Origin: a phage
Strand: one strand, 5' to 3'
Length of the DNA: 1,183 bases
Sequence record: OR846234.1
The translations under genes were made by a program, and so were the position numbers. Below the pieces are notes generated by a model, which searched no databases, was not told the DNA's origin, and saw nothing but the letters and a program-made list of their open reading frames with translations. Numbering within the stretch: the first letter of the stretch is position 1; the number at the start of each line of letters is the position of its first letter. This document shows, piece after piece, positions 1 through 1,183 of this stretch.

Positions 1-852
1 GCCGCGGCTGTTACCGCATGGGCGTCAACGTGGCGCATTCCGCAATTTAAAACGGTTGGCCTGCCGACAATGGGGGCTTACCGTGAACTACGCAAATTGC
101 CGCGCGGCGTCAGCATTGCTGATGAGTTTGACGAGCGCGTCGAGGCTGCACGCGCCGCCGCAGACAGTGGTGATTTTGCGTTGTATATCAGCGCGCAGGG
201 TGGGGCAAATGTCCCGCGCGATCGTCAGACTGTCAGGGTCGCCCGTAGCCCGTCGGATGACGTTAACGAGTACGAGGAAGAAGTCGAGAGAGTGGTCGGC
301 ATTTACGCGCCGCATCTCGGCGCGCGTCATATTCATATCACCAGAACGACGGACTGGCGCATTGTGCCGAAAGTTCCGGTCGTTGAGCCTTTGACTTTAA
401 AAAGCGGCATCGCCGCGCCTCGGAGTCCTGTCAATAACTGTGGAAAGCTCACCGGTGGTGATACTTCGTTACCGGCTCCCACACCTTCTGAGCACGCCGC
501 AGCAGTGCTTAATCTGGTTGATGAGGGTGTCATCGAATGGAGTGACCCGGAGGTCGTGAAGGCGCTCAGGGGCGCATTAAAACACAACCTGAGAACACCA
601 AATCGTCAGCAAAGAAACGGAAGCCCGTTAAAACCATATGAAATGGCACCATCGGCCAGACTGACCAGGTCGGAACGAATGCAAATTACCCGTATCCGTG
701 TTGACCTTGCTCAAAAGGGTATCAGGCCGCAGCGATGGGAGCTCGAAGTGTTGGCACGAGGCGCTACTGTTAGTTATGAGGGACAAAATTTTGCATTCAC
801 GGATAGCCATGACTGGAGTGGTTTTGCTGAACACTTTGATCTTTTTGAGTAA
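1..852 (+). CDS. hypothetical protein, probably 5'-truncated by the window edge (first in-window ATG at 70; stop TAA 850-852)
   Basis: Frame 1 is open from nt 1 to the TAA at 850-852. The supplied ORF track calls 70..852 (260 aa). Codons upstream of ATG70 (GCC GCG GCT GTT ACC GCA TGG GCG ...) look coding, with enterobacterial-type preferred codons (CTG, CCG, GCG, CGC), and there is no purine-rich Shine-Dalgarno in the 15 nt before ATG70, so the real start is likely upstream. All other tracked ORFs in 56-834 overlap this one out of frame or on the opposite strand. I do not recognise the product family from the translation. Confidence 0.75.
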   Translation, partial: AAAVTAWASTWRIPQFKTVGLPTMGAYRELRKLPRGVSIADEFDERVEAARAAADSGDFALYISAQGGANVPRDRQTVRVARSPSDDVNEYEEEVERVVGIYAPHLGARHIHITRTTDWRIVPKVPVVEPLTLKSGIAAPRSPVNNCGKLTGGDTSLPAPTPSEHAAAVLNLVDEGVIEWSDPEVVKALRGALKHNLRTPNRQQRNGSPLKPYEMAPSARLTRSERMQITRIRVDLAQKGIRPQRWELEVLARGATVSYEGQNFAFTDSHDWSGFAEHFDLFE

Positions 853-855
853 TTA

Positions 856-903
856 CCATAAAATGCTCAGGCTACCGCTTGGGATATCCCATGGAATGCT
901 CAG
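856..903. repeat. two 15-bp direct repeats (CCATAAAATGCTCAG 856-870; CCATGGAATGCTCAG 889-903; 13/15 identical, 33-bp register) flanking a perfect 10-bp palindrome GGGATATCCC (881-890)
   Basis: Read directly from the sequence. The first repeat starts 4 nt after the CDS stop codon. The palindrome lies between the two copies and also contains the arm of the long-range inverted repeat (872-883). Confidence 0.6.
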
Positions 904-936
904 TGTATACGCTTTATGCATAGGGTATAAAGGCTG

Positions 937-952
937 CAATTGGCAACAATTG
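937..952. promoter_or_regulatory. paired palindromic hexamers CAATTG (937-942 and 947-952) at 10-bp spacing; candidate operator or regulator-binding site upstream of the small ORF
   Basis: Read directly from the sequence: gCAATTGgcaaCAATTGtgc, lying 10-25 bp upstream of the GGAG at 962-965. Nearby are further small palindromes (GTATAC 905-910, ATGCAT 916-921) and a 6-bp stem CTTTAT/ATAAAG (912-917 / 927-932). Confidence 0.25.
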
Positions 953-973
953 TGCTGACATGGAGATAAACTC

Positions 974-1069
974 ATGTTGAAACTAGTGAGAGTACGTCAG
1001 TACAACCGCTATCGTTTCGGACGTTGGGAGACGGTGCGTAAACACCGCCGTTCTTACCCAACACGATGA
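974..1069 (+). CDS. candidate small ORF encoding a 31-aa arginine-rich basic peptide (MLKLVRVRQYNRYRFGRWETVRKHRRSYPTR)
   Basis: ATG 974-976 to TGA 1067-1069. GGAG at 962-965 sits 8 nt upstream of the ATG, a near-ideal Shine-Dalgarno spacing. The peptide has 9 Arg, 2 Lys and 1 His against 1 acidic residue. Codon usage is mixed (CTA, AGA, GGA, CGA are rare codons). It is too short to appear in the supplied ORF track. No homology could be checked. Confidence 0.3.
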   Translation: MLKLVRVRQYNRYRFGRWETVRKHRRSYPTR

Positions 1070-1070
1070 G

Positions 1071-1139
1071 ATGATATGCGGCCTAAGCGGTAGTGTCTTC
1101 TATATTCTTTTTCTCTTCATACATTTTATTAAAATGTGA
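1071..1139 (+). CDS. candidate 22-aa hydrophobic small ORF (MICGLSGSVFYILFLFIHFIKM), very tentative
   Basis: ATG 1071-1073 begins one nucleotide after the stop of the 974-1069 ORF; the stop is TGA 1137-1139. There is no separate spaced Shine-Dalgarno, so translation would have to be coupled. The hydrophobicity may simply reflect the T-rich sequence (TTC, TTT, CTT, ATT codons). Confidence 0.12.
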   Translation: MICGLSGSVFYILFLFIHFIKM

Positions 1140-1183
1140 AATATCTCCCATAAGTCTAAATATCTCTTTAAATTGTGTGATGT
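1094..1183. promoter_or_regulatory. AT-rich tract (about 26% GC) with direct repeat AAATATCTC (1139-1147 and 1158-1166); candidate promoter/operator region or the start of low-GC acquired DNA
   Basis: Hand-counted GC is 24 of 93 for 1091-1183, against the high-50s % in the CDS. A -10-like hexamer TAAAAT sits at 1130-1135 but has no good -35 partner. No ORF with a credible start runs to the window edge. Confidence 0.35.

Follow-up and report, generated by a model that had tools for sequence, protein, structure and literature searches.

Can a short intergenic spacer of a P2-like prophage hold a gene of its own, and if so, what might so small a product do beside its much larger neighbours? The question is raised by a stretch of phage DNA of 1,183 nucleotides (nt) from sequence record OR846234.1, referred to at its full length as the window, in which the convergent genes for the P2 replication protein gpA and for a large ATPase are separated by 230 nt without any RefSeq feature. 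Within this spacer lies a small open reading frame (sORF) of 31 codons. We show here that the sORF is under purifying selection at the protein level, that it is repeatedly partnered with RloC-type nucleases in a defence hotspot, and that the pairings which close its plus-strand mRNA on itself are conserved. We then weigh what the peptide may do, the favoured explanation being that it serves as an accessory of the neighbouring nuclease.

Evidence that the sORF encodes a protein

The sORF (974-1069, plus strand) begins with ATG, ends with TGA and has as its predicted product the peptide MLKLVRVRQYNRYRFGRWETVRKHRRSYPTR, whose 31 amino acids (aa) include nine arginines (29%), two lysines, one glutamate and one histidine, for a net charge of about +10. 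A GGAG at 962-965 is separated from the start codon by 8 nt (966-973). The frame, the placement of the GGAG, the arginine content and the charge had been listed in a preliminary description of the window and were re-derived here. The same description rated the translation signal of the sORF above that of a large coding sequence starting at ATG70, a comparison that is void because the large coding sequence is gpA entering the window from upstream, ATG70 being one of its internal codons.

Coding was examined with 20 distinct alleles drawn from 31 related P2-type loci. The 31-codon frame is open in all 20 alleles, with the same ATG behind the GGAG and the same end position, and the sole indel of the region, of 5 nt, is found directly 3′ of the stop codon. 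Variable alignment columns number 6, 7 and 18 at the first, second and third codon positions, respectively, and the pooled ratio of non-synonymous to synonymous differences per site (pN/pS) is 0.14 in the sORF frame, compared with 1.67 and 1.87 in the other two plus-strand frames, both of which carry stops. The same bias is seen when the window is compared with a single diverged allele, L003 (pS 0.62, pN 0.06). One minus-strand frame is also open; the variable wobble positions of the sense frame are second codon positions of this minus-strand frame, which therefore cannot explain the substitution pattern.

By this pattern, and by the family-wide conservation described below, the sORF is best described as a genuine, strongly conserved small-protein gene. 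This had been one of several options in the preliminary description, which proposed a search for a conserved frame with synonymous-biased substitutions and named frames broken by indels or stops as the opposing sign; the former is what the 20 alleles display, and no broken frame was found among them. The option is further borne out by a motif kept across the Proteobacteria and by a match to the phage protein family PHROG 21154.

Some alleles differ in ways that merit mention. In the window lineage only, a 5-nt tandem duplication (GATGA/GATGA region) at or after the stop codon, at 1068-1072, alters the spacing between the stop and the 3′ arm of the stem described below and leaves the protein unchanged. 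In Escherichia coli JNE21-009 (L006, 4222-6428) the adjoining RloC-like gene is annotated as frameshifted and the sORF allele carries R31W, a change of the last residue, and in L025 the ATPase match begins only at residue 121, beside an unaltered sORF allele. In both strains the module may be in decay.

A family of small basic proteins

A phmmer search of 1.84 billion representative proteins with the 31-mer returned six proteins of 32-70 aa that are 66-69% identical to it (E 9e-5 to 6e-4). Residues 3-30 of the window peptide match positions 19-46 of the 47-position PHROG 21154 profile (E = 1.6e-9, 38.9 bits). Of six diverse relatives compared with the profile, five match it at E 3e-10 to 4e-8 and the sixth (P0006) weakly at E = 1.2e-3. 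A profile built from 13 members extended the family to 91 clusters of proteins of 25-87 aa, all of them uninformatively named and free of Pfam domains. The homology search suggested in the preliminary description has in this way led to small proteins by phmmer, profile and PHROG alike. The members of PHROG 21154 are small proteins of temperate phages, and the entry holds no function, RNA context or link to RloC; unlike that entry, the sORF family extends past phages into chromosomal islands of many Proteobacteria.

The motif V.V..Y.R[YF]RFG.WE.V..H.RS.P is kept across the Proteobacteria, and all of its invariant residues are present in the window peptide. At least 120 loci were matched when one genome per species was scanned with a degenerate DNA form of R[YF]RFG.WE.V. 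Among the matches listed, 102 of 120 contain a short ORF with the remainder of the motif, V.V..Y before this core and H.[RK] after it, and a Shine-Dalgarno (SD)-like tetramer stands ahead of an in-frame start in 87 of these 102. Most hosts are gamma-, alpha- and beta-proteobacteria.

AlphaFold2, supplied with a 75-sequence alignment, models the peptide as an all-beta protein of four short strands (pLDDT 91). Neither by structure nor by sequence does the peptide resemble a solved protein, and Pfam, NCBIfam and PADLOC gave no match; homology to ribosomal protein L36 was considered and rejected, with an hhalign probability of 0.04%. Members from alpha-proteobacteria (L100, L111, L132, L134, L158; P0069) have a Cys-x8-Cys ... 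His-Cys arrangement (C..C..HC) that forms a possible zinc site. At these Cys/His positions Arg, Lys or Gln is found in enterobacterial alleles, and the window allele has no Cys, a split into C+ and C- forms that resembles the one seen in small ribosomal proteins. A further subfamily (L066, L082, L086, L148, L150, L160, L167; P0053, P0080, P0089, P0090, P0096), from which the window allele differs in having no tail, ends in GQLSLF, GQLDLF, GQMSLF or QLAFDF and is mostly encoded directly downstream of an ImmA/IrrE (Peptidase_M78) gene. We take these tails to resemble the pentapeptide that binds the beta sliding clamp.

No description of the peptide motif or of PHROG 21154 was found in the searchable full-text literature, and likewise none of the gene, its RNA or an RloC partner; the family is known to databases only as 'hypothetical protein' and as PHROG 21154.

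Association with RloC-like genes and other partners

The gene that converges on the sORF encodes a protein of 735 aa matching Pfam AAA_13 with 371 bits and the PADLOC model PDC-S06 with 829 bits; the literature mentions of PDC-S06 that we found were in census papers only. Its ABC ATPase motifs GQNGAGKST (Walker A), LSEGEKT (signature) and IVIDDPISSL (Walker B), its zinc-hook motif CPFCQ (C253-P-x-C256-Q) and its C-terminal MRNILEYYF...YRYINRxSH (M-R641-N-I-L-E645-Y-Y-F; Y-R-x-x-N-R-x-S-H685) are invariant in six homologues that are only 32-52% identical yet share them all. The region around R641, E645 and H685 may correspond to the Arg/Glu/His triad of anticodon nucleases (ACNases). RloC is described as an ABC ATPase with a coiled coil that bears a Cys-X-X-Cys zinc hook and with an ACNase triad shared with PrrC (PMC3874168). 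By its motifs the neighbour has this layout, and is best classed as an RloC-type protein, a predicted tRNA anticodon nuclease with a Rad50-like ATPase.

An RloC-like ATPase gene adjoins the sORF in all 31 P2-type loci, where the ATPases are about 50% identical in protein as against about 82% identity of the sORF region in DNA. The pair also occurs outside prophages, in convergent orientation by thiH and by an EcoRII restriction-modification system, and in co-directional orientation between hipBA and kdp. Among the matches listed, an RloC-like gene lies 50-370 nt from the sORF in 17 of the 102 species loci. The linkage was also examined from the RloC side, in a census of metagenomes from which the best 80 loci were kept (29-53% identical to the window ATPase). 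A family ORF is present in 35 of these 80, and in 34 of the 35 it adjoins the 3′ end of the ATPase, 23 times convergent at 15-47 nt and 11 times co-directional at 60-220 nt; in a convergent exception, L222, the gap is about 305 nt and the ATPase frame seems to be cut short. Of the 45 closest RloC-like loci, nearly all carry the sORF. This level of linkage, combined with changing orientation, points to a functional pair rather than to a fixed arrangement in cis.

Other neighbours of family members are ImmA/IrrE peptidases (12 loci), IS1595 transposases (7), NYN (5) and P63C (3) proteins, and further an unknown family of 257-260 aa, a DUF4145 protein matching PD-T7-4, an HNH_5 protein, RES, RhuM, methylases and integrases. 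The idea that the sORF is always found next to a HEPN RNase was rejected, given that partners of 175 aa and 257/260 aa match nothing in Pfam or PADLOC and show no evident HEPN motif. A protein of 175-177 aa without such matches is followed by a sORF homologue of 44-45 aa both in the Stx phage SH2026Stx1 (L042, 3249-4090), within its cI-N moron region, and in P4-like elements of Klebsiella (L057, 4304-5138), a pairing conserved at 70% identity; the leader motif 'TACCGCT...CTTGG' of SH2026Stx1 folds locally, with no pairing to the 3′ end. In Pectobacterium (L078, 2120-2324, minus strand), matches to isrK (65.8 bits) and C4 antisense RNA (58.5 bits), which are elements of P1/P7-type immunity regions, are found about 300 nt upstream of a sORF-RloC pair.

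A folded messenger RNA

The features of the window are collected in Table 1. The promoter-like site, which sits just inside the end of gene A, is present in 20 of 20 alleles with the end of its -10 element 111 nt before the ATG, while its surroundings vary, and it would drive the sORF transcript.

Table 1. Features of the window, with positions counted from its first nucleotide
Feature	Position	Strand	Sequence or composition	Basis or remarks
3′ end of P2-type replication endonuclease gene A	1..852	+		Annotated by RefSeq in identical loci; gpA matched by tblastn in every related locus
Sigma-70-type promoter-like site	836..864	+	TTGATC-17 nt-TAAAAT	Consensus scan; start predicted at about 871
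Closing stem, 5′ arm	871..883	+	GCTACCGCTTGGG	Pairs with 1082-1094, 13 bp
Pyrimidine-rich tract, candidate anti-SD	885..893	+	TATCCCATG	Complementary to SD region 959-968, one bulge
Leader hairpin 1	912..932 (912-919/925-932)	+	CTTTATGC / loop ATAGG / GTATAAAG	Pair conservation
Leader hairpin 2	934..954	+	Stem 936-942/947-953, loop GCAA	Pair changes
SD/AUG hairpin	958..977 (958-963/972-977)	+	Half of SD (GGAG 962-965) and start codon (974-976)	Pair conservation
sORF, small basic beta-rich protein of PHROG 21154 family	974..1069	+	31 codons and TGA	Selection, family, AlphaFold2 model
Closing stem, 3′ arm	1082..1094	+	CCTAAGCGGTAGT	Begins 12 nt after sORF stop; overlaps ATPase stop and last codons
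3′ end of gene for 735-aa RloC-like ABC-ATPase/predicted anticodon nuclease	1083..1183	-	Last 33 codons and TAG	Annotation, PADLOC, Pfam, motifs

Every one of the 13 pairs of the closing stem is preserved in the 10 alleles compared, and 872/1093 is found both as C-G and as U-A (shuffle p = 0.015). The block ATATGCGGCCTAAGCGGTA of the 3′ arm is nearly invariant, with one substitution in the L008 lineage, while the neighbouring ATPase coding sequence diverges. Across the family, 36 of 112 loci have a 5′/3′ inverted repeat with a score of at least 9.5 (about 30 with shuffle p <= 0.01), with 146-166 nt from the 5′ arm to the motif and 9-35 nt from the stop to the 3′ arm. The arm sequences are lineage-specific, for example GCAGCTACCACC/GGTGGTAGCTGC, GGTGGCGCTCGTCGC/GCGACGAGCGCCACC and GAGGCTCCTT/AAGGAGCCTC, and the closing stem is a trait of the family.

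Between the 5′ arm and the start codon, hairpin 1 keeps its eight pairs in 10 of 10 alleles, the only changes being A-U to G-U or U-A to U-G, and it recurs with an A-N-R-G-G loop in gamma- and alpha-proteobacterial relatives. The leader segment 897-932 holds two mutually exclusive hairpins, of which RNAalifold favours 897-908/916-927 (97% of cells paired), hairpin 912-919/925-932 being 100% paired and conserved family-wide; the two may act as a conformational switch. In hairpin 2 the pair 938/951 is A-U, U-A, C-G or U-G depending on the allele, and the hairpin persists in other lineages, from alpha- to gamma-proteobacteria, with a wholly different stem sequence. The hairpin that contains part of the SD sequence and the AUG keeps six of six pairs in 10 alleles. 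It competes with a pairing of the SD region to the pyrimidine-rich tract, which would constitute an alternative fold; CUCUCC or UCUCC tracts likewise follow the 5′ arm in other lineages.

For the structure as a whole, 350 of 350 pair cells from 10 alleles are standard pairs, against 31-47% in slid controls. Two-sided changes are found at 872/1093 and 938/951, and the one-sided changes are all G-U compatible on the plus strand only. By a count from the pair table, 44 of the 350 cells are G-U, which on the opposite strand would be A-C mismatches; the folded molecule is therefore the plus-strand RNA.

Several other identities for the repeats and the leader were considered and rejected. A miniature inverted-repeat transposable element (MITE)-like DNA element does not fit arms that differ between lineages with pairing kept, nor G-U pairs that suit one strand only. 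A retron msr-msd reading fails on the lack of a reverse transcriptase gene between gpA and Q and on the coding selection acting on the enclosed sequence. A reading of the 5′-3′ stem as that of a transfer-messenger RNA or tRNA was set aside after ARAGORN proved negative for the window and eight related loci; ACC, CCA or CACC often comes after the 3′ arm (e.g. L111, L138, L145, L162, L083), recalling a tRNA 3′ end, and here too ARAGORN was negative. For the window and 19 related loci the sole Rfam match was RT-6 (RF03027), below threshold: the match spans 910-981 on the plus strand at full model length with 19.1 bits, rising to 23.1 bits in the diverged P2-type allele L003, where the gathering threshold is 46.7. 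Membership of RT-6 was rejected on this score, on the absence of a reverse transcriptase from the locus and on the lack of a match in other lineages, and the RT-6 consensus had no match in E. coli genomes.

A scan of the window found no intrinsic terminator after the sORF, and U-rich tails follow the 3′ arm in only some lineages. No conserved minus-strand promoter was found inside the element in the 20 alleles, the single minus-strand consensus match (1099-1071) having a -35 that is not conserved; read-through of the convergent RloC mRNA could be a source of antisense RNA.

Location in the P2 defence hotspot

Megablast matches of the window are P2-like E. coli prophages, the gene A part being found in 1683 records and the whole window in 93. 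In the identical locus L001, gpA, the P2 replication endonuclease of 762 aa, contributes its last 284 codons as bases 1-852, and the single gene between gpA and the portal gene Q is that of the 735-aa protein, named 'AAA family ATPase' by RefSeq. The gpA-Q interval is a variable anti-phage hotspot of P2-like phages (PMC9122126), a paper in which neither RloC nor the sORF cassette is mentioned; the end of gene A is the left border of this hotspot and lies outside the sORF module. The spacer is present in 94 of 5426 complete E. coli genomes, with alleles down to 81% identity, and also in one Enterobacter phage and 23 IMG/VR contigs. Strains that carry the locus include E. coli ATCC 11775 / DSM 30083 and NCTC9008, which represent the 82% allele, and PMV-1, whose allele is 99.6% identical to the window. 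In many 'complete' E. coli records (NZ_CP169544.1, NZ_CP148363.1, NZ_CP051753.1) the window stands at 1438-2620 and the record begins exactly at the gpA start codon; such assemblies have evidently been rotated by a start-fixing tool to the prophage replication gene and not to dnaA.

Possible role of the peptide

The explanation that we favour, with a probability of about one half, is that the 31-aa peptide is a nucleic-acid-binding accessory of an RloC-type nuclease, the two genes forming a cassette in which the supply of the peptide is set by the folded mRNA. The sORF would be transcribed from its own promoter-like site to give a predicted mRNA of about 225 nt that closes on itself, its first 13 nt pairing with the 13 nt that start 12 nt after the stop codon. 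The leader of about 100 nt would present the two conserved hairpins, with the SD and AUG held in alternative pairings, so that translation is probably restrained or conditional. Together with the convergent nuclease gene the sORF would make up a conserved cassette, carried as cargo of the gpA/Q hotspot, and the peptide would bind nucleic acid and act on the nuclease, most likely as a safety or regulatory partner that is antitoxin-like or an adaptor. The roles of nucleic-acid binder and toxin-neutralising peptide, both raised in the preliminary description, are plausible candidates. Promoter use, gated translation, nucleic-acid binding and the direction of any effect on RloC are what we infer from the patterns described above.

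Several points weigh against this explanation. About 83% of family members among the matches listed have no RloC neighbour, from which it follows that the peptide is not specific to RloC and could be autonomous, and about 29 of the best 80 RloC-like loci have adequate flanks and no sORF. RloC enzymes have been reported to need no outside partner (PMC3874168). The orientation of the pair, which is convergent, co-directional or occasionally divergent, speaks against any one mechanism in cis. Peptide subfamilies do track partner type (core identity 0.73 vs 0.59, 0/2000 permutations), a correlation that is confounded by taxonomy. Lastly, as the peptide matches no solved protein, the argument for its binding nucleic acid is one from charge and fold type alone.

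A broader form of the idea is tentative. The sORF and its self-closing mRNA could represent a widespread, undescribed RNA-plus-peptide module of mobile elements in Proteobacteria that serves as an external control element not only of RloC but of other single-gene abortive-infection effectors, such as NYN, DUF4145/PD-T7-4-like and HNH proteins and ImmA-like peptidases, whether as antitoxin, sensor or adaptor. Some members would then look like zinc-ribbon-type C+/C- mini-proteins and others like proteins with a clamp-binding-like tail.

The main rival is that the sORF is an autonomous module of the type I toxin kind, in which a harmful peptide is encoded by an mRNA kept inert through 5′-3′ fold-back and sequestration of its SD and AUG, a selfish or abortive-infection unit of mobile elements that travels together with RloC and with other cargo. 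The mRNAs of hok, with its fbi-tac fold-back, and of AapA1 have this architecture, and here also different lineages keep the closing stem, and conserved pairings enclose the SD and AUG; most members, moreover, are without RloC and have diverse neighbours, in defence islands, integrative elements and the moron regions of prophages. Against these stand the hydrophilic and basic character of the peptide, where type I toxins are typically hydrophobic membrane peptides (a difference already pointed out in the preliminary description, and upheld by a net charge of +10 and the lack of any hydrophobic stretch), and the lack of a conserved minus-strand promoter for an antisense RNA in 20 alleles. A position at the RloC 3′ end in 34 of 35 loci is hard to explain by hitch-hiking, and peptide subfamilies follow the type of partner. 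We consider this rival rather improbable.

It is a good deal harder to regard the peptide as a self-immunity or anti-defence factor of the prophage, made in lytic growth by read-through of the P2 early operon from gene A, or from its own promoter, and silencing the phage's own RloC so that P2 can replicate. The sORF is immediately downstream of gene A in the same orientation, it is small and basic like many phage-encoded inhibitors, and in P2-type loci it is always found with RloC. The same pair, however, occupies chromosomal sites that are not prophages (thiH, kdp, EcoRII) and is co-directional in Pseudomonas, and the module has a conserved promoter-like site of its own; we regard the explanation as one with little chance of being correct.

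Very unlikely, too, is a sORF that is secondary or untranslated within what is primarily an RNA element, acting as terminator or insulator of the convergent genes or as antisense to the 3′ end of the RloC mRNA. In its favour are the nearly invariant 3′ arm that overlaps the RloC stop codon, a leader with 28% variable columns against 58% at third codon positions, the convergence of the genes with a gap of 13 nt between the sORF stop and the ATPase stop, and the weak resemblance to RT-6 at 19-23 bits. It is contradicted by the frame-specific substitutions with their pN/pS of 0.14, by an amino-acid motif kept across phyla while the nucleotides differ, by the frequency of SD-like tetramers (87 of 102 loci among the matches listed), by the existence of co-directional and RloC-less arrangements, by the lack of an intrinsic-terminator-like site and by an RT-6 score far under the gathering threshold. 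The preliminary description had joined the RNA to chance, as a chance ORF inside a structured RNA; the chance part is refuted by purifying selection and the structured RNA is retained, as an addition to coding and not an alternative to it, because the conserved closed fold of the mRNA encloses the sORF.

A chance ORF, or a leader peptide governing a gene downstream as also proposed in that description, would suit a short frame in an intergenic spacer not annotated by RefSeq, and can be dismissed in view of purifying selection, family-wide conservation and the absence of any co-oriented downstream gene from the window, in which the next gene is convergent. The substitution pattern is incompatible with all three of these readings, namely a role confined to RNA, a leader peptide and a chance ORF.

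Comparison with known systems

Published RloC enzymes are described as self-regulated and without an external partner (PMC3874168), and the present case differs in that a large RloC clade has a conserved small gene at its 3′ end. The related PrrC is an ACNase that can be controllable both by a partner protein, through masking by EcoprrI, and by a 26-aa peptide, Stp of phage T4. The sORF peptide differs from Stp in being encoded by the host or prophage rather than by an attacking phage, and has no resemblance to it in sequence by eye.

In the HEPN-RNase toxin systems RnlA-RnlB and LsoA-LsoB, and with Dmd of T4, an RNA-cleaving abortive-infection effector is controlled by the product of a small adjacent gene, and these systems offer a mechanistic model for the role inferred for the sORF. 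They show no homology to it, and the sORF, besides being far shorter, can converge on the effector and also occurs with non-HEPN partners.

In the organisation of its RNA, the sORF is closest to mRNAs of the hok/sok and AapA1 type, in which a 5′-3′ fold-back is combined with sequestration of the SD. All have a small ORF on a compact mRNA whose 5′ end pairs with its 3′ end, a sequestered ribosome-binding region and a home on mobile elements. The sORF differs in its basic, hydrophilic peptide, in that no antisense promoter was found and in having no sequence or Rfam relationship to them.

Arginine-rich peptides that bind RNA are known from lambda N with boxB and from the Tat protein of bovine immunodeficiency virus with TAR. 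The sORF product shares with these a short arginine-rich sequence, a predicted beta-hairpin character and the proximity of conserved RNA hairpins, one with a GNRA loop, and differs in having no sequence similarity and no antitermination context. That the peptide might bind its own leader is pure speculation.

Implications

The cloning and testing of RloC-like systems would change if the sORF is taken into account. It is omitted by RefSeq here and probably by defence-finder pipelines, and PDC-S06 constructs that end at the ATPase stop split the module, since the 3′ arm overlaps the stop codon. The analysis also defines a new structured mRNA leader with a closing stem, for which there is no Rfam family, and the sORF is a well-supported addition to the very few conserved micro-proteins of bacteria that have fewer than 40 aa and cross-phylum homologues. 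RloC, the most widespread anticodon nuclease, has been described as self-contained; a large RloC-like clade is nevertheless accompanied by a conserved partner gene for a protein of 31-40 aa.

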